64,000 bases of DNA from an uncultured Gammaproteobacteria bacterium. GTDB taxonomy: Bacteria; Pseudomonadota; Gammaproteobacteria; UBA9214. Both the position numbers and the translations under genes were made by a program. The stretch covers positions 1 to 64,000 of the forward strand of contig CAVVHS010000009.1 in NCBI GenBank assembly GCA_963748215.1, given 5' to 3'. Below, in pieces: positions 4,627-64,000 of this stretch. Below the pieces are notes generated by a model, which did not search any database, was not told where the DNA came from, and saw only the letters and a list, made by a program, of their open reading frames with translations. Numbering within the stretch: the stretch's first letter is position 1; each line of letters starts with the position of its first letter.

Positions 4627-5949
4627 CTAACTTTCGTCGACGCGGTATTCCACGTAGGCTTCGTCGCGCAGGCGCCGCAGCCAGAGCAACAGTTCCTCGT
4701 CGTACTTGCGCGAGCGGATCAGGTTCCTGATGCGGTTGCGTTCGAATTCTTCCGTGTTGTCATGATCGCGGTATTCCTGGACCTGGATCAGATGCCAGCC
4801 GAAGCGCGTGTATACCGGTTCGCTGATTTCGCCCGGGGCGAGCTTGTTCATGGCTGCCTCGAAATCGGGGATGGTGTCGCCCGGGCCGAGCCAGCCGAGG
4901 TCACCGCCCTTGGCCGCCGACAGCGTGTCCTGAGAATTCGAGCGCGCCAGGGTCGCGAAGTCCTCGCCCGCGCGCAGGCGCATCGCCAGCTGCCTGATGC
5001 GGACGCGGTTCTCTGCTTCGCTGTGCAGGTCGTCCTCCTTCAGCAGGATATGGCGTGCGCGCGTCTGGCGCATGATGTGACGCTCGTCGCCGCGTTTTTC
5101 CACCAGCTTGATGATGTGAAAGCCGCCGGGGCTGCGGATCAGTCCGGAGACATCGCCCGTCTGCAGGGTCTGCAACGGTTCGACGAACAGCTCGGGCATC
5201 TGGCCGAGGCTGCGCCAGCCGATATCGCCGCCTTCCAGGGCGGTCTGGGCGTCCGATTCGGCAATTGCGATTTCGGCAAAGTCGGCGTTCGCGCGCAGGC
5301 GCCGGAGAATGTCCGTGGCGCGCTGTTCCGCGGCCTGGATCTGTTCCGGACTGGCGGCTTCGGGAATCGCGACCAGTATGTGAGCGAGGTGATATTCCAC
5401 GTCGCCCGAGCCGCTGGTCTTGAGGGTGGCCAGCAGATTGTCGACTTCCTGGTCGGTTACACGGATGCGACTGCTGACCATCTGCCGGCGCAGTTCCTGG
5501 ATCAGCAGCTGCTTGCGCAGGTCCTCGCGGAAGGCCGCGTAGCTGAAGCCGTCGCGCTCGATGACGGCGCGGAAGTCGGAGACCGAGATGCCATTCTTGC
5601 GGGCCAGGTCCTGCACTTCGCTGTTCAGCGTACTGTCGTCGATCGACATGCCATTGGTCTCGGCGAGCTGCAGCTGCAGTTTTTCGACTACCAGGCGCTC
5701 CAGTACCTGCCGTTCCAGCACGCTGCGCTCCGGCAACTGGGTGCCCTTTTCGCGCAGCTGTGAAATCACGCTGGCCGTGGAAGTATCCAGCTCGCTGGAG
5801 ACGATGATACCGTCGTTGACGACGGCGACGATGCGGTTCAGCAGGCCCTGCCCGGACGCCGGTGACGCCGCCGGATCATCGGCGGCAACCGCTGCGCCGG
5901 CGCCAAGGGCCAGCAGCGCCAGCGCAGCCAGGAATCGGGGGTATTTCAT
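4627..5949 (-). CDS. surA: periplasmic chaperone/PPIase SurA
   Basis: signal peptide, RIVAVVND, two parvulin domains (HIL..GGDIGW / GGDLGW). Confidence 0.95.
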   Translation of the reverse strand: MKYPRFLAALALLALGAGAAVAADDPAASPASGQGLLNRIVAVVNDGIIVSSELDTSTASVISQLREKGTQLPERSVLERQVLERLVVEKLQLQLAETNGMSIDDSTLNSEVQDLARKNGISVSDFRAVIERDGFSYAAFREDLRKQLLIQELRRQMVSSRIRVTDQEVDNLLATLKTSGSGDVEYHLAHILVAIPEAASPEQIQAAEQRATDILRRLRANADFAEIAIAESDAQTALEGGDIGWRSLGQMPELFVEPLQTLQTGDVSGLIRSPGGFHIIKLVEKRGDERHIMRQTRARHILLKEDDLHSEAENRVRIRQLAMRLRAGEDFATLARSNSQDTLSAAKGGDLGWLGPGDTIPDFEAAMNKLAPGEISEPVYTRFGWHLIQVQEYRDHDNTEEFERNRIRNLIRSRKYDEELLLWLRRLRDEAYVEYRVDES

Positions 5950-5967: not shown

Positions 5968-8548
5968 TCAGTTATCGGATTGGTAGCCAAGAATACCACG
6001 TTCGAGCGCATCATCGACGCTGGTGCCCAGCTTGCCGAGGCCCTTGAACTCCAGCTGCAGGAACACGGCGGTGGTACGCGCACTGCCGTCGTTGTTGATG
6101 TAGTTGCGGGCCAGCAACTGTACGCCCCAGCAGCAGCGCTCGTAACCCAGACCACCCAGCGCCTCGATAGTTTCATCCGCCGTGACATCGTAGTACCAGC
6201 GGCCGACCATGTGCCAGGCATTGCCGAGCGGCCACAGGAAGGACACGTCTGTCTGTTCCTGGATGCCGTTGCGGTACCGGTAGCCGAGATTGATGAGCCG
6301 GCGCGGGTCGAGACGGTATTGCACGCGGAAGTTGTTGCGCTCGGTGCGGGACTCATGCGGGTTCCAGAGCACCTCGCCGCGTGCCGTCCAGTGGCGCGTC
6401 AGCGCCAGCGACAGCTCGGCGATGATGTCCGAGCTGCTGTCCAGGGAGGCGGGGTTGCCCGGCAGGGTGACGGTGCGGTCGCGGAAGTACAGCAGCGAAC
6501 CCAGGCTGGCACTGAGCAGCTGCCGGCCGCTGGCGGGGTCCAGGACACGCGTGGTGACGGCCAGCGCCAGCTGGTTGGCGTCACCCATGCGGTCCGGCCC
6601 GTTGAAGCGGTTGTCGCGGAACAACGCCCAGAAATTGGAATCGTAGATGCCGGTATCGAACACCGGCAGGTCGGTCTGGTCCTTGTCCGGCACGTACAGG
6701 TAGAACAGGCGCGGTTCCAGTGTCTGCACGTAGGGATGGTCTCCCCAGCTGCCGTTGCGTTCGAAGAAGGTGCCGGCATCGAGACTGTAGACCGGCGTGG
6801 TGCGGCTCGGGCTGTCATCCATGCCGGCGCTGACGTTGTCCAGCGCGTAGGTGGTATGGCGTACGCTCAGTGCCGGCTCGATATACCCGCCGGCGCGGCG
6901 CAGCGGCAGGCTGAGGCGCGGCTGTATATCGAAGCGGGTGCCTTTCACCAGCGTATTGTCGCTGTGGGTGAAATAGTTGAGTTCCGCCCTGGCTGAACTG
7001 CGCAGGCCGAGGAAGCGTTGTCGCCGGGCTGAGCTCGTAAACGATTTGCGGCAACTGCCGGTAGGGCCGGTCCGCCGGTGCCAGCGTGGTGTCGATGTTC
7101 TGGAAGTCCTGAACGGTCAGTCCCATGTTCCAGTCGCGCCCGTGCCAGACGGCGTGCGCGGTGCGTTCCAGGCTCGTCTGGCTGGTGGTCGCCAGGTCGC
7201 TGCCGAAGTCCCCGAAATAGAACGGATCGGATACATCGCCGGCCCTGATGTAGGTTTCCAGTCGCGGTTTCGGATTGGCGCTATGTGACAGGCTGACGAA
7301 GCTGCGGTCACGGTTGCTGAATTCATCGTCCGACGGCAGGTATTCCGCGGTCAGGGTGCCGGCGCTGTGTGCGGTCATGAAACGGAATTCACCGCCCAGC
7401 ATGGTGCCGCGGTCGGTCATGATGCGCGGGGTGATGGTGGCGTCGCGGTTCGGCGCGATGTTCCAGTACCACGGGATGCTGATATCGACACCGGTCTCAT
7501 CGGTCGTGCCGACCTTCGGAAACAGCAGGCCGGACTTGCGCCGGTCATCAAGCGGGAAACTGATGTACGGCGTGTAGAGAATCGGTACGCGCTTGAAGGT
7601 CAGCTTGGCGTCGCGCGCGGTAACGATACCCTCGTCATGGTCGATTTCGACCTCGTCCGCCGACAGCAGCCAGTCCTGGTTGCCGGGCGGGCAAGTGGTG
7701 TAGGACGCCTCTTCCAGGCGCTGGCGGTGGCTGCCTTCCAGGCTGAGCACGCCGGCCACGCCGCGCGCGTGCTGGTTGGGCAAGGTATAGGTGATGCCGC
7801 GCAGGGTGCCCAGTTCTTGCTCGGACTGCAGCAGCGCCGAGTCGCCGGTCACCTGCAGGTCGGGCGTTGTGAAACGGATACCGCCAGCGGCCTCGATCTC
7901 GCCGGTCTGCTGCCGGAAGGTGATATCGCTTGCCTGCAGCAGGCGGTTGCCGTAACGGACCACGGCATCGCCGCTCAAGGTGAAGACGCGGTCGGCGCTG
8001 GCGTCCGCGCTGTCCGCCTCCAGGCCGATCAGGTCCGTTGCGTCACCGATTGCGGGGAGGTCGGTGCCGGTGTCCAGTGTCATCGGCGGGCACATTGCCC
8101 AGCGATCCGGCTTGACGGTGCCGCTTGCATCCGGCGCGGCCCTGTCGGTTGTGGCTGCCGGCGCTTGCACGCCTGGTTCCGTATCGGGTGCAGGGGCCGG
8201 GGCCGGTGTCGCCGCGGTGGAGGGTTGATCTGTCGTTTGCGGTGCAGCCGGGGCCGTGGCTGTCGTGTCCGTCGAGACCGCGTCTGGCGCGATCCCGGTC
8301 GCGGTATCGGCCGCATTCGGCTGAGGCGCGGCCGCGGGCGCCGGCGCCGGGGGTATGGCGGGCTCGGTGACGGGTGCAGCATCGAGCGGCGCGGCAGGGA
8401 ACGCCGGCTGCATTGCCGGTGTCTCACTGGCGGAGCAATCCCACTCACCGTCCGGTCGCTGGCTGCAATCCCATTGCGCGCTGGCCGGCGCTGGCTGGGC
8501 CAGCAGCAGGGCCAGCGTCATGACTGGCAGCGCGTTGCGCCGCGTCAT
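5968..8548 (-). CDS. lptD: LPS-assembly protein LptD (apparent +1 frameshift at ~7024)
   Basis: YTTCPPG, DRRKSGLL, PWYWNIAPN, TLEPRLFYLY, DANQL motifs split over two ORFs; removing one base at 7024-7025 joins them. Confidence 0.9.
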
Positions 8549-21349: not shown

Positions 21350-21994
21350 GTGAGCATTGCCGCCGCCATCGATCACCTGAACAGCCTGTTGCCATTGAAG
21401 GACCGGCAGCTGGCCCTCGACCCGCCCTTGCGCGCGTTGCACCGGGACATCCTGCGCGGATTTGCCGAGGCCGGCGCGCCGCCCACGCGCGCGCAGATCG
21501 CCGCGCGGCCCGGTCTCGGTGATGCCGATGCGGCGCTCGCGCGCCTGGCCGGCGATGATCTCATTGTGCTGACACCGGACCGAAGCGGGGTGGCCGGCGC
21601 CTATCCGTTCACGACCGAGCCGCGCGCGCATCGCGTGCAGGTCAACGGACATGCCGTGCACGCCATGTGCGCCCTGGATGCGCTCGCGGTCGCGCCGATG
21701 TTCGAAACCGGCACGCACATCGACTCGCGATGCCACGTCAGCGAGCGGCCGATCAGTATTCGCATGCAGGGTGCGCAGGTGACAGACGCGCAGCCGGCCA
21801 GTCCCTGGGTCGGTATCCGCTGGCAGGGTACCTCCGGTTGTGCGGCACGGAGCCTGTGCATGGAGATGGTGTTTCTGTACGACCGGGCCACGGCCGAGGC
21901 CTGGCAGCAGGAAGACCCCGGGCATATCGAGATATTCGACCTGCCGGACGCGGTCGAATTCGCCGCGGCCTTCTTTCGCCCGCTGCTGGACTGA
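21350..21994 (+). CDS. alkylmercury lyase (MerB)-like protein
   Basis: N-terminal HTH-like part, AYPF..H, MCALDAL, SRCH, CxxxSLC. Confidence 0.75.
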   Translation: MSIAAAIDHLNSLLPLKDRQLALDPPLRALHRDILRGFAEAGAPPTRAQIAARPGLGDADAALARLAGDDLIVLTPDRSGVAGAYPFTTEPRAHRVQVNGHAVHAMCALDALAVAPMFETGTHIDSRCHVSERPISIRMQGAQVTDAQPASPWVGIRWQGTSGCAARSLCMEMVFLYDRATAEAWQQEDPGHIEIFDLPDAVEFAAAFFRPLLD

Positions 21995-52839: not shown

Positions 52840-53246
52840 GCATGAAAAGGATTTTGATTGTCGACGATGAGCCACATGTCATCCGGGTGATGCGGCTGGC
52901 ACTGGAAAATGCCGGCTATAGTGTCGAGGAGGCCGGTAATGGACAGCAGGCGCTGGAAAAGATACGCAGCAATCCGCCTGATCTCCTCATCAGCGATATC
53001 GACATGCCGCGTATGACCGGCAAGGAGCTGTGCAGCAGGATCACGGAGGAGATGCCCGATCGAAAATTCGGTATCTACATCCTGACCGCACGTGCGGAGG
53101 ATGAGCACCGCTCCTGGTCAAGGGCCATGGGCAACCTCGATTTCCTGGAGAAACCGGTCAGTATCCGCAGGCTGCTTGGCCGGCTGGAAGAATTCTTCAT
53201 TAGCAACAGCTTCAGCGGAGAGCGGCAATGTCATCCGAGCCGCTGA
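52836..53246 (+). CDS. single-domain response regulator
   Basis: ILIVDDE, DIDMP, LTA, EKP. Confidence 0.92.
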   Translation: MSMKRILIVDDEPHVIRVMRLALENAGYSVEEAGNGQQALEKIRSNPPDLLISDIDMPRMTGKELCSRITEEMPDRKFGIYILTARAEDEHRSWSRAMGNLDFLEKPVSIRRLLGRLEEFFISNSFSGERQCHPSR

Positions 53247-55435
53247 ACGACATCAACTTCGCACGCTACTTCCAGCTGTTGCGGCAATTGATGCCGCGCG
53301 GCATGGACTTCTATGTCTGCAGCCTGTCCGGTGCGGTGCTGGCGGCGGACGCGGGCAACATGGCGCCGGTGGCGCCTTCCAGCGTGAAGGTCGACAGGGC
53401 AATGAAGCAGTTGTCGGTCGGGAATGAATCGCGTCTTGCGGCCGATAAGGGCAGTGACACTATTACCTATGTGATGGATATCCATACATCCGCCGGCGAA
53501 ACGGCCGCGGTGCTTGTCGCCACCGGCCCTGTGGGCGGCGATCCCGGTGCTACGGACCTCGATCATGCCGTGGACGTGGCGTTCATGTCCGTGGTCGAGT
53601 GTATCGAAAAGGAATACCGGCTGACTGTCGAGCTGAATGCCATGGCGCAGGAACTGGCCGGGCGTTACGAGGAAATCAACCTGATGTACGACACCTCGGA
53701 TGCCAATACCAGCATCGAGGATGAGGACATCACGCTGAAGCAGTTGATAGAGAACTACGTCGAATACCTCGATGTGGACATGGTGGCCATAGTCTATCCG
53801 CAGCAGGAGCGTATCCTGTGTGCGCTGGGGAGCCGCGATCCGATCCCTGCGCCCTATGAAATCATACGACGGCTGAGCCGTGACTATTTGCCGCAGGCGC
53901 GGGCGCATGGCAGCTGCCTGCTGATCAACGATATCACCGACCGCCGACGAGATGATCTGTCACTGGAAATGCCCTACAAAATACTCTCCTGTCCCGTCTA
54001 CAACGTTCGCGATGAAATTGACGGGATCCTGATCTGCCTCAACCATATATACCGTGCCGACTTTTACAACAGCGACCGGAGCCTGCTCAAGGTCATGGCC
54101 AAAAAGGTAGCGAAAATCACGCAGACCAACTACGACGCGCTGACCGGGCTGATGAACCAGCTTGCCTTTGAGAGTGTCCTGCAGCGGGCGCTCGACCAGT
54201 CACGTGATGAAGGCGTCTTTCACTGCCTGCTGAATATCGATATTGATCGCCTGCAGGTGGTGAACGAAAGTCTCGGCAGGTCGGCAGGGGATCATGTCAT
54301 CAAGAGTGTTGGCGAGATGCTGCGCCACAAGCTTCGCGGCACGGATTCTGTGAGTTACCTGGGCGAGGGGCGCTATGGTGTGCTGCTCGAAAGCTGCGGT
54401 ATCGAGCAGGGTATGCAGGTGTCGCAGACATTGCGCGAGCAGGTGAAAGAAGGCGGTCTGTCCTGGGACGGGATGGTGCTCGATCTTTCGGTATCCATTG
54501 GCATAACCGTCGTCGAGCCTCACATCCACAAGATTGAGCAGGTGATGGAGGCGGCGGAGCTGGCGCGTGAGGCGGCCAAGGAACTGGGCAATGGCCAGCT
54601 TCAGGTGTTCCGCCAGAATGACCAGGACCTGGTGATGCGCAAACACAATATGCAATACGCGACCACTATCCAGAAGGCGCTGCGTGAGAACCGCTTCCGG
54701 CTCTATTGCCAGACGATCCGGCCAGTGGCGGAAAGCCGTGAAGAGTACCATTTCGAGGTGCTGCTGCGGCTGATCGGCGAGGATGGTGCCGTCATGAGTC
54801 CGGTTGCGTTCCTGCAACCCGCAGAACAGTACAACCTGATGCCGGCCATAGATCGCTGGGTTATCGACGCGACCTTTTCCGCCCTGGCAACGGCCGGCAT
54901 TGCCGGCAAGCCCGGGCAGGGGACAGTGTCCATCAACCTGTCGGGACAGTCACTTACCGATGTTGCTCTGGCGGATTATATCAAGGACAAGTTGCACCAG
55001 TACGGTCTCGCTCCGGACTGTATCTGTTTCGAGGTGACCGAGACGGCGGCCATCGGCAACAAGACGGCTGCACTCAGGATTATCGAGCAACTGAAGAAGC
55101 TGGGATGCCACTTTTCCCTGGATGATTTCGGTACCGGTCTGAGTACGTTCAGTTACCTGAAGGAGCTGCCGGTTGACTATGTGAAAATAGACGGCTCGTT
55201 TGTGCGGAAGATTCTGGAAGACAAGGTGTCGCATGCCATGGTGGCGTCTATCAACCAGATTGGCCATGTCATGGGCTTGCGCACCGTTGCCGAGTTTGTC
55301 GAGAGCGAGGCACTCGCAGAGCGCCTGGCGCTGATGGGGCTGGATTATCTGCAGGGCTACGCCATCGATGAACCGCAGCCGCTGACGGACTACCTGTCCG
55401 GTCTGGCCGGTGCGCGGTCTGTACGGGCCGGATAG
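53228..55435 (+). CDS. GAF - degenerate GGDEF - EAL protein
   Basis: DALTGL, GEGRY in place of GGDEF, EVLLR, DDFGTG, KIDGSF, QGY. Confidence 0.92.
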   Translation: MSSEPLNDINFARYFQLLRQLMPRGMDFYVCSLSGAVLAADAGNMAPVAPSSVKVDRAMKQLSVGNESRLAADKGSDTITYVMDIHTSAGETAAVLVATGPVGGDPGATDLDHAVDVAFMSVVECIEKEYRLTVELNAMAQELAGRYEEINLMYDTSDANTSIEDEDITLKQLIENYVEYLDVDMVAIVYPQQERILCALGSRDPIPAPYEIIRRLSRDYLPQARAHGSCLLINDITDRRRDDLSLEMPYKILSCPVYNVRDEIDGILICLNHIYRADFYNSDRSLLKVMAKKVAKITQTNYDALTGLMNQLAFESVLQRALDQSRDEGVFHCLLNIDIDRLQVVNESLGRSAGDHVIKSVGEMLRHKLRGTDSVSYLGEGRYGVLLESCGIEQGMQVSQTLREQVKEGGLSWDGMVLDLSVSIGITVVEPHIHKIEQVMEAAELAREAAKELGNGQLQVFRQNDQDLVMRKHNMQYATTIQKALRENRFRLYCQTIRPVAESREEYHFEVLLRLIGEDGAVMSPVAFLQPAEQYNLMPAIDRWVIDATFSALATAGIAGKPGQGTVSINLSGQSLTDVALADYIKDKLHQYGLAPDCICFEVTETAAIGNKTAALRIIEQLKKLGCHFSLDDFGTGLSTFSYLKELPVDYVKIDGSFVRKILEDKVSHAMVASINQIGHVMGLRTVAEFVESEALAERLALMGLDYLQGYAIDEPQPLTDYLSGLAGARSVRAG

Positions 55436-55523: not shown

Positions 55524-57569
55524 ATGAGTGCTTCGCCTGAATACATGGCCAACGAGGTGCTGCGCACGCGCGTGGGTGTGATGACACACCTGGCGCCGCG
55601 TACGGCACTGGTCAGCATGGCGGAAATACAGGGGCTTGTCAGTGCAGCCTCCGATTGCCTGCAGGCAGGCGACACCCAGCTGGTAGTGGACCTGGGTTCG
55701 GTCCGGCTGCTCAACAGTGCGGCACTCGAGGCACTGGTGGACATCCAGGAACAGGCGGTGCGACTGGGTGGCTGGCTGAAGCTGGCGCATGCGAACAGCC
55801 TGATCAAGGACATTCTGCAACTCACTACCTTTTCAGACTTCATCACCCTGATGGACGCAGAGTTGCCGCCGTGGCAGCCCGCGGCAGGCCGTCCGAAACG
55901 TCTTGGTGACATCCTGCTGGCCCGCGGACTGCTGACTGAAGAGCGTATAGACGAGGCGCTCGAGCTGCAGAAGCGTAGCTCCCGGCGCATGGGGCAGATT
56001 ATTATCGACAAGGGCTGGGTGACCGAGCAGGACATGCTGAGTGCGCTGGGTGAACAACTGCAGGTTCCCTATGTGCGCCTGCGTGCCGGTATCTACGACC
56101 CGGAAATAATCGGTAGCATCGACAAGCGGGTTGCAAAGCGCCTGCAGGTGCTGCCGCTGCAAAGGCTGCGTCGTGTGCTCTATCTCGCCACCTCCGATCC
56201 ACAGGCCATGCCGGTGTTCGATGAAATCGAAAAACTCACCGGCTGCCGTGTCAGGCCGGTGATCGCCCGGCGTGAGGAGATTATCAACACCTTCAACGAT
56301 GCCTATGCGGGCAATGTCGATACCATTGAGCTGGTGGGCGATATCGATGAAGACTTTTCCATTGTCGAGAACATCGTCCGTGATGACTACGCCACCATCG
56401 ACGAAATGGCGGACGGCAGCCCGATCATCAACCTGGTCAACTCGCTGGTGCAGCGCGCGATCCGCGATGGTGCCAGTGACATCCATATCGAACCATCACG
56501 CCACAGGACACGAATACGCTGCCGTATCGACGGTGTGCTGTACGAGGTCACCACGCTCGGCGCCGAGTATCACCCGTCGATCGTATCGCGTCTCAAGGTG
56601 ATGGCGAATCTCGATATCGCCGAACGTCGCATGCCGCAGGACGGCCGCATCCAGGTTCACACGCAGGGGCGTGCGGTCGACCTGCGCTTCAGCTCGCTGC
56701 CCGGTCTGTTCGGTGAAAAGGTCGTGCTGCGGGTGCTGGACAAGAACCAGGCGCTGCTCGATGTGAACAAACTGGGTATGAGTGAGAATAATCTGAAAAC
56801 CTTCAAGTCGCTGCTGGACAGCAGCCATGGCCTCATCCTGGTAACCGGTCCGACCGGCAGCGGCAAGACCACCTCGCTGTACGCGGCGCTGAATTATCTC
56901 AACAGCATGGAAAAGAACATCGTGACCATCGAGGATCCGGTGGAATACCAGATCGAGATCGTCAACCAGAACGAAGTGCACGAACATATCGGCCTGACCT
57001 TCTCGACCATCCTCAGGCACACCCTGCGCCAGGATCCCGATATCGTCATGGTGGGCGAGATTCGCGATCGCGAGACCGCCGAGATTGCCGTGCAGGCCGC
57101 ACTGACCGGCCATCTCGTGCTGTCGACACTGCACACCAACCACGCCATCGGCGCGATTACGCGCATGATCGACATGGATGTGGAGCCCTATCTGCTGTCG
57201 TCCGCGCTGATCGGTGTGGTCGCGCAGCGCCTGGTGCGCACCATCTGCCCGGCCTGCAAGACCACTTATGTCGCCGGACCCGATCTCGTGAAGCAGTTCG
57301 GCTGGGAGGGTGAGCAGCAGGTGAAGCTGGCGCGCGGGCGCGGCTGCACGGAATGCTACGACTCCGGCTATCGCGGGCGCATGGGCATCCACGAGGTGCT
57401 CGACAGCGACGAGGCGTTGCAGCGCCTGATTACAGCCAACGCCAGCCGTGAGGAACTGACTGCCTACCTGAGGAAGCGCCACATCAGGACACTGTTCCAT
57501 GACGGAATGGACCATGTGCGCAGCGGGGAAACCACGATCGAGGAGGTTTCGCGTGTTATCAATATCTAG
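55524..57569 (+). CDS. GspE/PilB/MshE-type ATPase with N-terminal STAS and MshEN domains
   Basis: VVDLGSVRLLNSAAL; RLGDILLARGLL..ALELQ; GPTGSGKTT, EDPVE, RQDPD, CxxC...CxxC. Confidence 0.92.
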   Translation: MSASPEYMANEVLRTRVGVMTHLAPRTALVSMAEIQGLVSAASDCLQAGDTQLVVDLGSVRLLNSAALEALVDIQEQAVRLGGWLKLAHANSLIKDILQLTTFSDFITLMDAELPPWQPAAGRPKRLGDILLARGLLTEERIDEALELQKRSSRRMGQIIIDKGWVTEQDMLSALGEQLQVPYVRLRAGIYDPEIIGSIDKRVAKRLQVLPLQRLRRVLYLATSDPQAMPVFDEIEKLTGCRVRPVIARREEIINTFNDAYAGNVDTIELVGDIDEDFSIVENIVRDDYATIDEMADGSPIINLVNSLVQRAIRDGASDIHIEPSRHRTRIRCRIDGVLYEVTTLGAEYHPSIVSRLKVMANLDIAERRMPQDGRIQVHTQGRAVDLRFSSLPGLFGEKVVLRVLDKNQALLDVNKLGMSENNLKTFKSLLDSSHGLILVTGPTGSGKTTSLYAALNYLNSMEKNIVTIEDPVEYQIEIVNQNEVHEHIGLTFSTILRHTLRQDPDIVMVGEIRDRETAEIAVQAALTGHLVLSTLHTNHAIGAITRMIDMDVEPYLLSSALIGVVAQRLVRTICPACKTTYVAGPDLVKQFGWEGEQQVKLARGRGCTECYDSGYRGRMGIHEVLDSDEALQRLITANASREELTAYLRKRHIRTLFHDGMDHVRSGETTIEEVSRVINI

Positions 57570-57595
57570 GGAAACTCTGATTTATTCAATGGCAT

Positions 57596-57681
57596 CGTCA
57601 TTGCGAGCGCAGCGAAGCAATCTCTCCATAATGCTGACAATACCCTGGAGATTGCTTCGTCACCCTGTTCCTCGCAATGAC
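57596..57681. repeat. CGTC-type inverted REP pair
   Basis: CGTCATTGCGAG..GAAGCAATCTC / GAGATTGCTTCG..CTCGCAATGACG. Confidence 0.8.
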
Positions 57682-57713
57682 GGATTAACCGAGGCTTCCC
57701 GGGGAGGCAGTTA

Positions 57714-58838
57714 ATGCCGCTTGAAGTTGCCGCCACGCGCCGGGTCGAGGCCGGCAAGGTACCCGCCAAATCCGCTCCCCGCGCAAGGCGCCACCGGCGT
57801 GTGAAGCCTGGCGTGCGCGAGCGTATGTTCTTTACCGAGCAGCTGTCGCTGCTGCTGGAAACCGGCACACCACTGCATGCCTCCCTGAAGGCGCTGGGCA
57901 AACAGGTCGAAAATCCGGCCATGGCGGACATTATCGCCGGCCTGCAGGAACACATCACCACCGGCAAGTCATTTTCCTGGGCGCTGGCGCAGTACCCCGA
58001 CCTGTTCCCGGGCACCTACGTGAAGCTGGTCAGCGCCGCGGAGGAAGGCGGATTTCTCGACACCGTGCTGCTGGAACTGATGAAGATGGACGAAAAGCGC
58101 GAGGAGCTGCGCAGTACCGTACTGTCGGCGCTGTCCTATCCGGGCTTCCTGATCGCGTTCTCGATCTTCGTGGTCATCTTCGTGCTGGTGGCGGTATTCC
58201 CGAAGTTCGCCACCATGTTTGCCAGCATTGCGGACAAGCTGCCGGTCACCACCATCGTGCTCATGCACGCGAGTCACATCCTGATCGACTACTGGATGCC
58301 GATCCTGGCTGCGATGGTCGGTACCATTGCCGGTGCCGTCTGGTGGCTACGGACGCCGGCCGGCAGTGCGGCGCTGGACAGTTTCAAGATGCGGGTATTC
58401 GGCCTGCGCGATATCTTCATCCAGATCTACCTGATCCAGTCCATGCGCGTGCTGGGCCTGTCACTGGCGAACGGCGTCAGCGTGCCGGATGCCCTGGTCT
58501 CCTGCCGCGAGGTGGTCTCGAACAGGGTATTCCAGCGGTTCCTGGTGGGTATCGAGGGCCGGGTCCGGGAGGGTGGCGGGTTCGCGGCGGCCTTCCAGCA
58601 AGAGGCCTTTATCCCCCCGCTGGTGCGCCAGATGGTGACGACCGGCGAGGAGACCGGCAATCTGCCCCGGGTGCTGAGCCGCGTCGCCGACTACTACGAA
58701 CGCGAGCTGCAGAAGAAACTCGCCGCCTTTTCGCGCATGGTGGAGCCGGTCATGCTGATCGTGATGGGCGCCGTCGTCGGACTGATCGTCAGCTCGCTGA
58801 TCCTGCCCATCTTCAAACTGTCGCAGGCGGTGCACTGA
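57714..58838 (+). CDS. GspF/PilC/MshG platform protein
   Basis: FTEQLSLLLETG.PL, ALSYP, GEETGNL, VEP, LPIF. Confidence 0.92.
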   Translation: MPLEVAATRRVEAGKVPAKSAPRARRHRRVKPGVRERMFFTEQLSLLLETGTPLHASLKALGKQVENPAMADIIAGLQEHITTGKSFSWALAQYPDLFPGTYVKLVSAAEEGGFLDTVLLELMKMDEKREELRSTVLSALSYPGFLIAFSIFVVIFVLVAVFPKFATMFASIADKLPVTTIVLMHASHILIDYWMPILAAMVGTIAGAVWWLRTPAGSAALDSFKMRVFGLRDIFIQIYLIQSMRVLGLSLANGVSVPDALVSCREVVSNRVFQRFLVGIEGRVREGGGFAAAFQQEAFIPPLVRQMVTTGEETGNLPRVLSRVADYYERELQKKLAAFSRMVEPVMLIVMGAVVGLIVSSLILPIFKLSQAVH

Positions 58839-58847
58839 AGCGTGGAT

Positions 58848-59053
58848 GGTGCGTGGAACGCACCCTACAGTTTGCCACGGTGTGTCTGGCTGCGTAGGGT
58901 GCACTCCGTGCACCATGATCGTTACCCCAGCCGGTGCGTGAAACGCACCCTACGGATTATTGCGATGCCGCCTGATTGGGTAGGGGCACTCCGTGCACCA
59001 TGAATCCCCGCTCCTTGGCCGTTACGGCTGTTGGTGCGTAAAACGCACCCTAC
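58848..59053. repeat. GTAG REP cluster 1
   Basis: alternating GGTGCGTNNAACGCACCCTAC and GTAGGGTGCACTCCGTGCACC. Confidence 0.9.
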
Positions 59054-59094
59054 GAATGCTCAATAAAACAGTGCTGCGCGGTGCCTGGCCTACC

Positions 59095-59122
59095 CGTCAT
59101 TCCGGCGCAAGCCGGAATCCAG
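59095..59122. repeat. CGTC-type REP
   Basis: CGTCATTCCGGCGCAAGCCGGAATCCA hairpin just past the PEP-CTERM stop. Confidence 0.65.
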
Positions 59123-59124
59123 AC

Positions 59125-59832
59125 TCAGAACTTGCGTCGGCGTGCCACGCCAATCAAACCCAGCAGGCCGGAACCGAACAGCCAAACGGCGGCAGGGACG
59201 GGTACCGTTGTAATACTCAGCGTTGGCGCGTAATCGCCCGGATTACCTATTTGGGGATTACCAGACGATTCCTTGCTGCTGAATGCGTGGTTACTCGTTG
59301 AGACATTTGCTTGTGTGAGAATGAAGGTGATCAACCCATCGGTATCGTTGTTAATGAAGTCAACAAAAGTGCTGTTACTAAAACTAATGACATTATTACC
59401 TGTATAGCTGATCAAATCCGAGAATAACAGAGTCGTTGATGCGAGATCGATCGAATTTGTCAGTTTTCCTGGTGCGTTACTCCAGTCGATTGTGTCTTCT
59501 GACCAATTGGGTGAGACTGAATCATTCAGCCCATAGATATCTAACCCCAACGAACTAGTTGAGTTATAGCCAAAGAGCTCCAATGAAACCGCGGAAGCGG
59601 GATCTCCGATTGACTGAAAGGCCGTGATATCAAATCCAATGTATGAGTAGATGCTGTAATTGCCACTTGTGAAGGGTGCAAGTTGTGTAATTGCCCCTCC
59701 GAGCGGATCGGTAATGTTGTTGTGAATATTGGCATCATTATTCGTCTGGAAATCGATGGTGACGGCATTAGCGTCAAGTACATACGTGGCAAGACAAGCC
59801 AGCACAACGCCAGCAAGGCGTGATAGCATCAT
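59125..59832 (-). CDS. PEP-CTERM/VPLPA-CTERM surface protein, possible DNRLRE/CBM96-like domain
   Basis: GGAGG RBS, signal peptide, YIGFD..WSEDTIDWSNAP, C-terminal VPVPAAVWLFGSGLLGLIGVARRRK; visibly low GC. Confidence 0.88.
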   Translation of the reverse strand: MMLSRLAGVVLACLATYVLDANAVTIDFQTNNDANIHNNITDPLGGAITQLAPFTSGNYSIYSYIGFDITAFQSIGDPASAVSLELFGYNSTSSLGLDIYGLNDSVSPNWSEDTIDWSNAPGKLTNSIDLASTTLLFSDLISYTGNNVISFSNSTFVDFINNDTDGLITFILTQANVSTSNHAFSSKESSGNPQIGNPGDYAPTLSITTVPVPAAVWLFGSGLLGLIGVARRRKF

Positions 59833-59933
59833 GATGAATCCTCCGTAATCTTGTTTTTTATTGCCGGCCGTTATTTTTTGTAACCGGTTGCGCGCAGGGT
59901 ACACCCATCGACAGGGACCATCAAGCCTGTCCC

Positions 59934-60086
59934 GGTGCGTGGAACGCACCCTACGACACCCCGCGCTGTGTCTGACCGAGTAGGGTGCACTTTGTGCACC
60001 GTCATCGGTGCCCCTGTCGGTGCGTAGAACGCACCCTACGGATTATTGCAGCGCTGTCTGATTGGGTAGGGTGCATTCCATGCACC
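59934..60086. repeat. GTAG REP cluster 2 (5' of RAYT)
   Basis: four alternating REPs. Confidence 0.9.
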
Positions 60087-60131
60087 ATGATTGCTGCTCA
60101 CTAACACGAGGACTCATGGCAGGGCGCAATC

Positions 60132-60683
60132 ATGCCGAATTACCGGCGTACCATTGCTCCGGGCGGCACCTTCTTCTTCACGGTTGTCTCCTGGCGGCGC
60201 CGGCCCGTCCTGTGCAATTCTGACATTCGCGCCTCCCTGCGCGCAGCGCTCACGAGCGTCAGGTCAATACACCCTGTCACGGTCGAGGCCATGGTGCTGC
60301 TGCCGGACCATTTGCATTGTATCTGGACATTGCCTGAAGGGGACGCCGATTTCGCCGTGCGTTGGGCAATGATCAAGCGATTGGTAACGCATGATTGCGG
60401 CAGGCGTTACCCTGCATTCGCGAATATTTCCGCGTCCCGCAAGGCGCGGAAAGAGGGCGTTATCTGGCAGCGACGCTACTGGGAGCACCAGGTGCGTGAC
60501 CGGCTGGATCTGATCCGCTGCCTTGATTATCTGCACTGGAATCCGGTCAGGCACGGCTATGTCGGGGCTGTGATCGACTGGCCGTGGTCCAGTTTTCACC
60601 GCTACATGAGGCAGGGACATTACCCGGTGGATTGGGGCGGGCCAGGTGCGATTACCAGAGGAACGGAAGACTTCGGTGAATAG
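60132..60683 (+). mobile_element. rayT: REP-associated tyrosine transposase (RAYT, HUH/Y1)
   Basis: YRR..GGTFFFTV, LPDHLHCIW, WQRRYWEH, YLHWNPV.HG, WPWSS; flanked by REPs. Confidence 0.93.
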
Positions 60684-60693
60684 ACCGTGTCAT

Positions 60694-61099
60694 GGTGCGT
60701 AAAACGCACCCTACGGTGTCGCGGTGTATCTAACCGGGTAGGGTGCACTTCGTGCACCGTGATCGGTGCCCCTGTCGGTGCGTAAAACGCACCCTACGCC
60801 CATGGATCATCCCCGCTGCGTAGAACGCACCCTGCGGATTCTCGCATATTGGGTAGGGTGCACTCCGTGCACCGTGATCGGTGCCCCTGTCGGTGCGTAA
60901 AACGCACCCTACGCCCATGGATCATCCCCGCTGCGTTGAACATGCCCTGCGGATTCTGCTATTGGGTAGGGTGCACTCCGTGCACCGTGATCGGTGCCCC
61001 TGTCGGTGCGTGGAACGCACCCTACGCCCATGGATCATTCCCGCTGCGTGGAACGCTCCCTGCGGATTCTGCTATTGGGTAGGGTGCACTCCGTGCACC
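60694..61099. repeat. GTAG REP cluster 3 (~113-bp period)
   Basis: GTAG at 60738, 60853, 60966, 61079. Confidence 0.9.
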
Positions 61100-61258
61100 G
61101 TGAATCCCGCGCCATGCCCGGAGCCTGGATCGCTGCGTGGAGCGCGCCCTGCATCTAACCCACTAATATAAAAGTATTAATTCCGCCTGCCCGGGGCGCC
61201 GGGTAGCGCTGCAGCACCAGCCGGGAAAACACCCAACCCTGTTGATTCCCTCAAAAAG

Positions 61259-61285
61259 TAAAGCCCCCGTAAAAAAAGCCGATAA
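61259..61285 (+). promoter_or_regulatory. sigma28 (FliA)-type promoter
   Basis: exact TAAA-N15-GCCGATAA, 43 bp upstream of the pilin ATG. Confidence 0.75.
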
Positions 61286-61328
61286 CCCGTTCGCAGTCTG
61301 AACAAATACCGGTTCTCAGGAGACAACC

Positions 61329-61913
61329 ATGACACGAATCAAACATCCAGCCGGCAAGGAAGCCGGTTTTACGCTGGTCGAACTGCTGATCGTCGCCATC
61401 ATCCTGGCCATCCTGGCCGCGATTGTGGTGCCGCAGTTCGCCTCTTCCACGGACGATGCCGAGGCCTCGGCCTTGCGCTCAAACCTGGCCGGTATCCGCA
61501 GCGCGATCGATCTGTATTACCAGCAGCATGGCAGCACCTTTCCGGGTGCGGTGGCCGCAACCGGCGGTACCTGTACCGGTGGTACGGCGGGCGCCGGCCT
61601 GATTGATACCGGGACTGCATTTGAAGAGCAGCTGAAATACTATTCCAACGCCGCGGGCCAGACCTGCAGTATCAGGGACGTACCGGCCGGCGGTGTCGTG
61701 GAATTCCCGTTCGGTCCGTACATCAAGGGTGATGTGCCGGCCAACCCGGTGACCGGTATCGCTACCATCGCCATCGAAACCACCGGCAACCTGGCCATGA
61801 CTGCCCCGGCCGCTACCTCGCAGGGCTGGCGCTACGACACTACCTCCGGCAAGTTCATCGCGGACGATTCGGTGGGTGTCGACTCGAACGGTACGGTCTT
61901 CGATACCTACTGA
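61329..61913 (+). CDS. major pilin/pseudopilin (type IV N-methylation site)
   Basis: AGGAG RBS; AG|FTLVELLIV; internal Cys pair. Confidence 0.92.
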   Translation: MTRIKHPAGKEAGFTLVELLIVAIILAILAAIVVPQFASSTDDAEASALRSNLAGIRSAIDLYYQQHGSTFPGAVAATGGTCTGGTAGAGLIDTGTAFEEQLKYYSNAAGQTCSIRDVPAGGVVEFPFGPYIKGDVPANPVTGIATIAIETTGNLAMTAPAATSQGWRYDTTSGKFIADDSVGVDSNGTVFDTY

Positions 61914-61951
61914 TAACAAAACAGTGCTGACACCGGGACAGAGTCAGACTG

Positions 61952-62506
61952 ATGCGGGCGTTGCGTAGTCATGGCGTAACCCTTGTAGAACTCCTGGTGG
62001 TCGTCTCGATATTGGGGGTTGTCGCACTTGCGGCAATCCCCGATTTTCGTTCTGCAGACCCCCTGCGGCTGGACCTGGCGGCGCAGGAAATCGCGGAGGC
62101 GATTCGTTTTGCACGCAGCGAATCATTACGCACCGGCATGATCCACGGTGTCCAGATCAGCCAGGACACCCAGCGGGTGGTGGTCTACAGGGCGGACCTG
62201 ACGACGACACCGGTCGGCATGGTGTCCATCCTCTACCATCCGGTGGCGAAGCAGCCGTTCGACTTCGACGTGGCTGCGCGTCCGACCACCGCCGGTGTCA
62301 GCATCACCAATGCGCAGGATCCCTTTCTCTACGCAGCGGGACGGCGCAAGAACCTGCTGTTCGATGCGGCAGGCGTGCCGATCTGGATCGTTAATGCCAC
62401 AGCCACGACCTACGTATTGCAGGACGGGCTGGTTGAACTGGCTTACGGCAGTGGCAAGCGGGTTGTCCAGATTGCGCCGATTACCGGCCGGGTGACGGTG
62501 CAATGA
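61952..62506 (+). CDS. minor pilin, GspH/FimT-like
   Basis: HG|VTLVELLVV, AIRFARSES, C-terminal TGRV. Confidence 0.88.
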   Translation: MRALRSHGVTLVELLVVVSILGVVALAAIPDFRSADPLRLDLAAQEIAEAIRFARSESLRTGMIHGVQISQDTQRVVVYRADLTTTPVGMVSILYHPVAKQPFDFDVAARPTTAGVSITNAQDPFLYAAGRRKNLLFDAAGVPIWIVNATATTYVLQDGLVELAYGSGKRVVQIAPITGRVTVQ

Positions 62507-62576
62507 CCGCGTCAATGCGCCTATCACTGTCAGCATGTTCCAAATGATTATTTGCCGAGTTTGCAAGGAGACCGCT

Positions 62577-62876
62577 ATGCACATACCTACAGTCCTGATG
62601 TGGAGTATCACCCTCTTGACCGCCGTGGTCGGCATGGTCTTTCTGTTCTTTCCGGACCGGATCGCGCGACTGGAGGCGTGGCTGAATGCGCCCTGGGGTA
62701 ACCGTGAAGTGGCCTCGCTGCGTTTCGGGCTGCCTGCAGAACAGACCATTGAACAGGTCCTGAACCGCAATATCCTGGCGACACCGCTGGTCTGGGACGG
62801 CTGGCTGCGGCGGCACCCGCGGCCGGTCGGAGCCGTGCTGTGCCTGGTGGCCGCATTGCTCTGGTGGCAGATGTAG
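62577..62876 (+). CDS. small two-TM hypothetical protein
   Basis: AAGGAG RBS; hydrophobic termini. Confidence 0.7.
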   Translation: MHIPTVLMWSITLLTAVVGMVFLFFPDRIARLEAWLNAPWGNREVASLRFGLPAEQTIEQVLNRNILATPLVWDGWLRRHPRPVGAVLCLVAALLWWQM

Positions 62877-62886
62877 TGCAACCGGT

Positions 62887-63711
62887 ATGCTGCGCGGGGT
62901 AACAGACAGGGTGCATGGAATACACCCTGCCCGGCGTACGGGTAGGGTGCACTTCGTGCACCATGACACGGTGCGTGAAACGTACCCTATGGATTCCACC
63001 TCTGCGGTGGGATCGTCGAGTAGGGTGCACTCCGTGCACCGTTGTATGGTGCGTGAAACGCACCCTATGGATTCCACCTCTGCGGTGGGATCGTCGGGTA
63101 GGGTGCACTCCGTGCCCCATTGCACGGTGCGTGAAACGCACCCTACACAATCTGCCACTGCGGTGGAATCTTCGGGTAGGGTGCACTCCGTGCACCGTTG
63201 TATGGTGCGTGAAACGCACCCTGCGGATTCTGCCTCTGCGGTGGGATCGTCGAGTAGGGTGCACTCCGTGCACCGTTGCGCACCGTGGATCAGGCGCATG
63301 GCCGGTCTGAGCTACATCGAGGTCCTGATCGCCACGGCCCTGATCGCCATCACCCTGGTACCGGCCATCGAGGCCCTGACGCCCGCCCTGCAGGGTGCGG
63401 CCATCCATGAATCAAGCACTGTCCAGCAGTTCCACCTGGCCGCCCGGCTGGAAGCGCTGCTGGCCGAACCGTTCGCGGCACTGGACGCGGAGGCCGTGGC
63501 CATCAACAACCCGAACGTGGCCAGCACCGTCTATTCGGATACGGTCGGCGCAACCAATCGCCGCCTGGTCTACCTGTCACGCTACGACGCCGACAATGCC
63601 GATGGCGACAATGACTTTTTCACCGGCACGGACGCGGGCCTGATCTGGATAAGGGTCGAACTCACAGGGACGGCGCGGGCCATCGAAGGCCTGACCAGTG
63701 CCTATGAATAG
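62887..63711 (+). CDS. minor pilin (PilV/MshD-like); REP-encoded N-terminal extension, alternative start 63298
   Basis: AG|LSYIEVLIA after ~137 codons of open, largely repeat-derived sequence. Confidence 0.75.
   Translation: MLRGVTDRVHGIHPARRTGRVHFVHHDTVRETYPMDSTSAVGSSSRVHSVHRCMVRETHPMDSTSAVGSSGRVHSVPHCTVRETHPTQSATAVESSGRVHSVHRCMVRETHPADSASAVGSSSRVHSVHRCAPWIRRMAGLSYIEVLIATALIAITLVPAIEALTPALQGAAIHESSTVQQFHLAARLEALLAEPFAALDAEAVAINNPNVASTVYSDTVGATNRRLVYLSRYDADNADGDNDFFTGTDAGLIWIRVELTGTARAIEGLTSAYE
62908..63274. repeat. GTAG REP array 4 (78-bp period)
   Basis: GTAG at 62942, 63020, 63098, 63176, 63254. Confidence 0.93.
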
Positions 63712-63726
63712 GACGGATCATCATGC

Positions 63727-64000
63727 GGTGCGTGAAACGCACCCTACGGATTCGGGGCGCGGTGGGGAAACGTCGCGTAACACGGTGCGTGAACGCACCT
63801 ACCCATTCTGCATCCGCACTGGAATCGTTGGGCAGGGTGCACTCCGTGCACCATTGCGCGGTGCGTAAAACGCACCCTGCGGAATCTGCCGCCGCGCTGG
63901 AATCATCGGGTAGGGTGCACTCCGTGCACCATGGCGCGGTGCGTAAAACGCACCCTACGGATTCTGCCTCCGCGGTGGAATCATCAGGTAGGGTGCACTC
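63727..64000. repeat. GTAG REP array 5 (78-bp period, runs off the window)
   Basis: same unit type as array 4. Confidence 0.9.

Follow-up and report, generated by a model that had tools for sequence, protein, structure and literature searches.

A stop-free REP array at the start of a minor-pseudopilin gene: a putative 140-residue prepilin leader

Introduction

Repetitive extragenic palindromic (REP) sequences lie, by definition, outside genes, and annotation pipelines shorten gene calls to keep clear of them. Whether such palindromes can form part of a gene is the question raised by a 64,000-nucleotide stretch of DNA from an uncultured Gammaproteobacteria bacterium (positions 1 to 64,000 of contig CAVVHS010000009.1, assembly GCA_963748215.1; hereafter the window), in which an array of REP doublets runs, in a frame devoid of stop codons, into the coding sequence of a minor pseudopilin. 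An earlier note on this DNA had read the array as the leader peptide of the prepilin. The array most likely consists of GTAG-type REP doublets of the neighbouring REP-associated tyrosine transposase (RAYT), situated within the leader-coding part of the minor-pseudopilin gene (hereafter the target). As judged from the sequence and its relatives, the balance leans toward translation of the array as a leader of 140 amino acids that prepilin peptidase would remove. The features on which this reading turns are the following.

62887..63306, plus strand: putative 140-codon leader, from ATG 62887 through the REP array to Gly(-1), in a frame without a stop.
62942..63279, plus strand: REP-doublet array (Tandem Repeats Finder), 78-bp unit, 4.3 copies, read as RVHSVHxxxVRETHPxxSxxAVxSSx.
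63268..63270, plus strand: alternative in-frame GTG start with a 13-residue leader, within the 3' arm of the last REP hairpin; Shine-Dalgarno energy -5.4 kcal/mol.
63298..63300, plus strand: alternative ATG start (M-A-G) with a 3-residue leader, which is the start of the 137-residue database form P0001; Shine-Dalgarno energy -3.5 kcal/mol, approximately background.
63307..63711, plus strand: mature minor pseudopilin, 134 residues plus stop, beginning LSYIEVLIA…, of a family with the conserved block YLSRYDADNAD.
62577..62876, plus strand: up113, a small membrane protein of 99 residues from the probable ATG 62577; Shine-Dalgarno energy -8.5 kcal/mol, against +1.5 at ATG 62535.
60132..60683, plus strand: RAYT (NCBIfam NF047646, E 1e-51, 174.6 bits against a cut-off of 80).

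The open reading frame and its proposed use

The open reading frame (ORF) at 62887-63711 on the plus strand, 274 amino acids long, is present in the ORF list of the window and confirms what the earlier note had described, namely an ATG shortly after the upstream stop and an uninterrupted passage through the array to G|LSYIE. ATG 62887 stands 10 nucleotides (nt) past TAG 62874-62876, the stop codon of up113, and the codon of Gly(-1) occupies 63304-63306, which gives the full leader of 140 residues. Openness of the frame in the window by itself proves little. The caveat raised at the time, that two plus frames are open in the array, is borne out: besides the stop-free leader frame, a second plus frame has its single stop at 62900, ahead of the array, and in the third a TAG recurs with each unit. 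According to the ORF list, two frames of the minus strand are likewise open over the array.

In the proposed use of this frame, ribosomes that end translation of up113 would restart at ATG 62887, the array would be read as a basic, non-hydrophobic N-terminal extension of 140 residues that stays in the cytoplasm, and prepilin peptidase would cut after Gly140, so that the mature protein would be the same at any array length. Selection on the leader segment would then act solely on the reading frame and on the lack of stops, and insertions as well as expansions by a period of 3n could therefore persist there. An in-frame GTG is present in every REP, preceded by the Shine-Dalgarno-like GGGUAGGGUG (-7.0 kcal/mol), but it is buried in the hairpin. 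Such REP-borne GTGs and ATG 63298 may yield extra short-leader precursors, an identical mature protein being expected from every in-frame start.

The leader of the window has a net charge of +8 and no hydrophobic stretch, and 39 of the 40 leaders of at least 30 amino acids are net positive. A basic, non-hydrophobic leader fits a cytoplasmic segment that is cut off on the cytoplasmic side, as described in the available part of a review of class III signal peptides (PMC4471445). When promoters and terminators were scanned for, neither a promoter-like site in 61200-64000 nor a terminator-like one within the array turned up.

Conservation of the frame in relatives

Relatives were collected by a scan of species-representative genomes, from which the best 80 of 103 confirmed stretches were taken. 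The usual gene order, found in most of the 80 loci, is gspG-like, gspH-like, target, J-like and K-like. Repeat-free relatives locate the ancestral start, which the earlier note had proposed to seek in this way: where the spacer is short, the start codon of the target is an ATG or GTG placed at the stop of gspH, in most cases overlapping that stop (…CAATGA), and the leader has 6-17 residues. REP-free homologs exist, in that 45 of the 61 target loci without Met at position -3 have spacers shorter than 60 nt. An in-frame “RPGDxxM” that recurs upstream of the target was rejected as a feature of its own, being merely the gspH C-terminus in another frame.

The frame was followed across 192 junctions, namely those from gspH or up113 into the target, from the target into J and from J into K. 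A junction was counted if an ATG, GTG or TTG situated between -12 and +18 nt relative to the preceding stop shared the frame of the Gly and met no stop codon before reaching it; both remaining frames, examined alike, served as controls. Junctions were dropped if the tblastn match did not begin at the first residues, and at least one junction (J to K of locus L068) is unanalysable. In a variant of the test, openness was assessed solely upstream of the last 45 nt, by which the bias from genuine coding sequence beside the Gly is removed. The counts are as follows.

Spacer under 60 nt: 111 junctions; in frame 111, first control 15, second control 10, none 0.
Spacer 60-450 nt: 74 junctions; in frame 52, first control 7, second control 9, none 19.
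Spacer 100-450 nt: 52 junctions; in frame 33, first control 3, second control 3, none 18.
Spacer 100-450 nt, 45-nt rule: 52 junctions; in frame 33, first control 9, second control 8, none 12.
Spacer 60-450 nt, unique combinations of type and length, 45-nt rule: 66 combinations; in frame 44, first control 16, second control 14, none 12.

The collapsed set of 66 combinations gives a binomial p of 3.7e-6. Of the 74 junctions of 60-450 nt, 34 have an in-frame start that overlaps the stop; the other frames have 9 and 8. The coupled frame is retained over long spacers, a good many of which contain REPs, about four times as often as either control frame. The outcome that the earlier note had set against its own proposal, an array that is intergenic in orthologs with the frame preserved at chance rates, is not what the related loci give (33 of 52, against 9 and 8), and the proposal survived. 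Leaders are obligatory at 25-45 residues in 11 junctions, which offer no nearer in-frame ATG, GTG or TTG. The array of the window thus has the position of an in-frame intragenic repeat: it lies inside an uninterrupted ORF, in frame with the conserved part, and homologs without the insert exist. It is located between two conserved coding regions, yet within an open frame that relatives keep above chance.

REPs in the leaders of relatives

In the window and in the loci L001, L017 and L021, and nowhere else in the set, up113 separates the gspH-like gene from the target. In all four, a start 9-12 nt past the up113 stop is in frame and open; the leaders comprise 140 codons in the window and 49, 60 and 71 codons in L001, L017 and L021, respectively, and both other plus frames are closed in each. 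By tblastn, up113 is found elsewhere in the cluster in L003, L024, L037 and L038.

L001 is the closest ortholog and has REPs in frame before three successive genes, the I-like (target), J-like and K-like ones. Before the target, they lie between a start 12 nt past the up113 stop and the Gly (49 codons). Before the J-like gene, they extend from an ATG overlapping the target stop to G|YTLLE (69 codons), with TIGR02532 beginning at residue 67, and before the K-like gene from a GTGA overlap to the N-terminus (77 codons, 78-bp units). The J-to-K junction of L001 was scored as not open for the sole reason that the J-like gene is frameshifted there. We also note that in 6014-7751 of L001 both the J-like and K-like genes are apparently frameshifted, with overlapping ORFs and a DNRLRE domain split over 6568-7353 and 7299-7751, which could be an assembly error or real decay.

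REPs of the window family or related ones are in frame likewise in L017 and L007 (two junctions each) and in L003, L005, L008, L021 and L061. Under a strict definition of a REP-like element, which requires a perfect GC-rich hairpin with a further copy elsewhere in the locus, 11 of 13 such junctions are in frame and open, the exceptions being in L057 and L059. The earlier note had also proposed to test leaders for an enrichment of 3n units. The four tandem arrays in the analysed junctions have periods of 78, 78, 63 and 33, all 3n, as has the second array of the window (78), which occupies the corresponding position, and hairpin-bearing arrays elsewhere have periods of 89, 80, 113 and 120; the arrays compared are few and partly ascertained by openness.

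The target leader of L021 (4854-4950) has three tandem 33-nt units (PECPRDGIGLA), in frame, between two REPs. The J-to-K junctions of L052, L076 and L078 hold leaders of 67-106 codons with a different palindromic element (SSPRKRGS … IPACAGM), in frame from the GTGA overlap. In L026 a 195-nt spacer before the target (4809-5003) has two REPs and stops in all three frames, and its final 28 in-frame codons include neither ATG nor GTG nor TTG; given the nearby homopolymer runs, an assembly error is possible there.

Alternative starts and rival explanations

A serious alternative, though less probable than translation of the array, is that the REPs form an untranslated array between operon genes and that the target starts at ATG 63298 or GTG 63268. 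The open frame would then follow from the 3n unit and the stop-free frames of the REPs, and any effect of the REPs would be on mRNA stability or downstream expression. The 137-residue database form P0001 agrees with such a start, as do 31 of the 120 database proteins listed, which begin M-x-G, and the methionine at -3 is conserved in its clade, the ATG being present, as in the window, in 17 of 78 target loci. GTG 63268 would provide a family-typical leader of 13 residues with the Shine-Dalgarno energy given above. The two plus frames open over the array are also compatible with it, and the available part of a published survey judges many REPs at the N-termini of ORFs to be extragenic (PMC3733652).

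Against an untranslated array stands the behaviour of the upstream start, which is in frame and open in each of the 17 Met(-3) loci, whose spacers come in 13 lengths, as well as in all four up113 loci; of untranslated spacers, about one in three would be expected to show this. Moreover, Met(-3) lacks Shine-Dalgarno support across the clade: the mean energy of the 17 codons is -2.24, against a background of -2.69, and the coupled starts have a mean of -4.74. The description of ATG 63298 as a codon with a 3-residue leader and no obvious ribosome-binding site is in keeping with these values. Position -3 is Gln in 33 of 78 target loci; since the rest of the family conserves it as Gln, conservation there needs no start codon, and that of Met(-3) was dropped as proof of a start. 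A 3-residue leader is also shorter than the known range of 6-26 residues, as given in the available part of PMC4471445. Finally, L004 (GTT, Val at -3) and L010 (ATC, Ile at -3) have no Met there and still keep open leaders of 50 and 29 codons, respectively; in L004, 39 codons separate the Gly from the closest in-frame ATG, GTG or TTG, which stands on the far side of a decayed REP doublet of the window type.

It is improbable that expansion of the array has crippled expression of the gene and left a decaying 5' end whose open frame is a functionless remnant: the array of the window (4.3 doublets) is indeed far longer than that of any relative (the next longest REP-bearing leader counts 71 codons, or 77 before the K-like gene of L001), its RNA structure is very stable, the second array is already out of the frame of the conserved start and a Shine-Dalgarno sequence both strong and accessible is lacking at every candidate start, but the mature part is intact (84% identical to L001, with 15 of 15 invariant residues of the family alignment) and the copies, diverged to 86% identity, have zero stops in 140 codons.

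Translation of the array as a leader has to be held against several observations that speak for other readings, among them the clade conservation of Met(-3) and the M-x-G starts mentioned above. ATG 62887 has no Shine-Dalgarno sequence (-0.5 kcal/mol), so that initiation would rely on restart after termination 10 nt upstream. The RNA of the array is very stable (the fold of 62860-63330 has -254 kcal/mol, z = -8.3) and could hinder ribosomes. The GC-rich REPs are stop-free in two of three frames, and the 78-bp unit makes expansion frame-neutral without selection; the extra copies in the window are therefore no evidence themselves. A leader of 140 residues is far above the 6-26 residues of the review (PMC4471445, available part). 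Among the relatives, 12-18 of the 52 long junctions (100-450 nt) have no open coupled frame, and REP-like spacers contain stops in L026 (gspH to target), L057 and L059 (both target to J). The loci are mutually related, and the junction counts are for this reason not fully independent.

One further point on this side comes from another array at the end of the window.

63727..64000, plus strand: second REP array, 78-bp unit, running past the window end, presumably before the next pseudopilin gene.

ATG 63704, which overlaps the target stop and is the conserved start of the next gene in relatives, meets TAA 63866-63868 after 56 codons; the closure of its frame stems from a two-base loss in one REP of the second array. 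The frame of a neighbouring codon, ATG 63723, is open to the window end and reads GRVHSVHH…VRKTHP. The earlier view of the cleavable leader as a haven for REPs inside coding sequence is partly supported: relatives keep the frame above the controls, but the frame of the conserved start at the second array is broken and ATG 62887 has no Shine-Dalgarno sequence.

The repeat family and its transposase

Tandem Repeats Finder reports the array at 62942-63279 with a period of 78, 86% matches and 0% indels; of the “exact” array described earlier the exact period stands, and the copies are non-identical. Each unit comprises a GTAG-REP, 7 nt, an inverted REP with a CTAC end and then a third small hairpin. 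Both the GTAG tag and the pairing in opposite orientation are present, as the consensus unit starts GTAGGGTGCAC and the partner REP ends CACCCTAC; a tetranucleotide GTAG tag marks GTAG-type REPs in the available part of PMC3733652. The short imperfect palindromes, a feature sought at 20-40 bp, have 19-nt cores, GGTGCAC-TCC-GTGCACC and GGTGCG-TGAAA-CGCACC. Shuffled sequence leads one to expect 0.01 and 0.00 matches to these two cores; the window has 19 and 15, and 31 of the 34 matches over the 64 kb lie within 58.8-64.0 kb, around the RAYT.

The association of the array with a RAYT is substantiated by the gene at 60132-60683, which is located 2.2 kb upstream of the target ORF and is flanked by REPs at 59934-60086 and 60694-61099. 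A RAYT with 78% identity occupies the same place in L001. A further array follows the transposase.

60736..61103, plus strand: REP array between the RAYT and the first pseudopilin gene, period 113 (not 3n), with no frame open across the array.

Over 58848-61170 as a whole, REP arrays begin 10 nt past the gspF-like stop and flank the RAYT, with spacings of about 85, 100 and 113 bp, none of them 3n. A minus-strand ORF with a CBM96 match (59125-59949) sits between two of the RAYT-flanking arrays.

The mature pseudopilin

The target has Gly at -1, Glu at +5 and an N-terminal hydrophobic helix, AG|LSYIEVLIATALIAITLVPAIEAL, with a Kyte-Doolittle hydropathy over 19 residues that peaks at 2.32, and it fits seven of the eight positions of the cleavage motif quoted in PMC8578077. 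The AlphaFold model has a pLDDT (predicted local distance difference test) of 89 and shows a long helix at the N-terminus (residues 6-55) that precedes three strands. With the 137-residue form, 179 relatives at E <= 0.001 were obtained out of 327 candidates. The curated N-terminal models PF07963 and TIGR02532 are not matched by the target, nor is any Pfam family, the best match being TIGR02523 at E 0.05. Among 30 family members tested, 4-6 show weak GspJ, PilV, GspI or N-methyl matches, and the precomputed PF07963 label is present on 2 of the 120 database matches listed.

Naming the pseudopilin more closely was attempted and given up on two routes. By fold, no PDB entry reached E <= 0.001 with Foldseek, the best having 0.37 and an EpsI:EpsJ entry coming 30th with E 1.9, and by sequence, a profile search of PDB sequences gave streptavidin alone, at E 0.29. 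The target is treated here as a minor pseudopilin on the basis of motif, model and gene context.

The leader peptide was searched separately. A word-indexed search gave a single match, P0121, which is the REP-bearing K-like ORF of L001, and an exhaustive HMMER search gave 12 matches, all of them unrelated tandem-repeat proteins without prepilin motifs. By these searches, the REP-coded part belongs to no protein family.

Neighbouring genes

The target resides in a gene cluster of the kind expected for a prepilin-like protein, with GspG-like and GspH-like genes directly upstream and T2SSE and T2SSF genes, coding for a GspE-like ATPase and a GspF-like platform protein, at 55524-58838.

61329..61913, plus strand: GspG-like major pseudopilin with an ordinary 13-residue leader (…KEAG|FTLVE); PF07963, TIGR01710/TIGR02532; Shine-Dalgarno energy -7.4 kcal/mol.
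61952..62506, plus strand: GspH-like minor pseudopilin, with family matches; in most relatives the ATGA at its stop overlaps the target start.

The up113 ORF reads 62535-62876 as 113 residues; ATG 62577 is preceded by AAGGAGA, and a start there matches the 99 residues of L001. No Pfam or NCBIfam match was found for up113. At the stop of the gspH-like gene, the ATGA (ATG 62503) that is the target start in most relatives opens just 14 codons here (62503-62547), a remnant consistent with up113 having come to separate the gspH-like gene from the target at a later time.

The ATPase gene (55524-57569, GspE/MshE-type) codes for an N-terminal STAS domain before the MshEN domain, and the gene of a GGDEF-EAL protein (53228-55435) is located directly upstream of it. 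No match to a prepilin peptidase (Peptidase_A24) was found among the 49 larger ORFs of the window that were scanned; its gene may be elsewhere in the genome. An alkylmercury lyase (MerB) ORF at 21350-21994 stands among housekeeping genes, with no further mer gene among the scanned ORFs.

Comparison with known systems and implications

Intercistronic REPs and bacterial interspersed mosaic elements of E. coli and Salmonella are untranslated hairpins between genes of one transcript, and they modulate operon expression. In contrast to these, the reading frame is kept across the REPs here; a possible effect on downstream expression underlies the idea in the earlier note that the array could tune pilin translation or stoichiometry.

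Closer to the array of the window are the REPs surveyed by Di Nocera et al. 2013 (PMC3733652), the available part of which reports that GTAG and CGTC REPs occur within annotated ORFs, alone, in pairs or in clusters encoding 20-82 residues, more commonly at the N-terminal than at the C-terminal end. These share with the present array the GTAG-tagged, RAYT-linked palindromes inside ORFs. They differ, as far as that part of the survey goes, in that a cleavable leader, a block of 140 residues, several successive genes of one operon and a test of frame conservation are found here, the survey having none of the last. The list of REP-bearing ORFs in the same part of PMC3733652 includes no pilin or prepilin, the sole secretion-related entry being GspE of P. 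putida. The Rickettsia palindromic elements, as cited in the available part of PMC3733652, are likewise in-frame mobile palindromes in coding sequence at a tolerant site that keeps the host protein functional; unlike the tandem insert of the window, which would leave with the leader, they are single copies and stay in the mature protein.

Class III signal peptides, according to the available part of Berry and Pelicic 2015 (PMC4471445), have Gly at -1 and Glu at +5, comprise a hydrophobic helix some 21 residues long and are cut on the cytoplasmic face. The hydrophilic leader is held in the cytoplasm by the positive-inside rule, and changes in it are tolerated except at the final Gly, shortening being possible in some systems. 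The target resembles these peptides in Gly -1, Glu +5, the hydrophobic N-terminal helix and the hydrophilic leader. It does not conform to their leader length of 6-26 residues, as the candidates here have 3, 13 or 140, with 6-17 in repeat-free relatives and obligatory leaders of up to 45 in others.

Our literature search found no link between REPs and prepilins, the one paper that contains both terms being judged unrelated from title and abstract. In-frame intragenic REPs are already known, and REPs in prepilin leaders are not described; what is new is that the repeats lie in a cleavable class III leader, that the block is of this size, that REPs recur ahead of consecutive coupled genes and that there is evidence of frame conservation. 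A much wider view, which we regard as speculative and rather unlikely, is that palindromic mobile repeats (several REP families and other elements) collect quite generally in cleavable class III leaders and that, in operons of translationally coupled minor pseudopilins, translated hairpin arrays act as an adjustable brake, the copy number of the unit setting the output of the downstream pseudopilins without altering the mature proteins.

Should the array indeed be translated as a leader, the locus would reveal where selfish palindromes spread harmlessly inside coding DNA, and the known length range of prepilin leaders would be extended several-fold. Start calls in these operons would be inconsistent, as in L001, where the I-like protein is called short (P0002, 137 residues) and the K-like one long and REP-bearing (P0121, 261 residues). 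These operons would also offer a simple natural system for ribosomes on stable hairpin arrays, and for the relation of repeat copy number to the ratio of pilus subunits.

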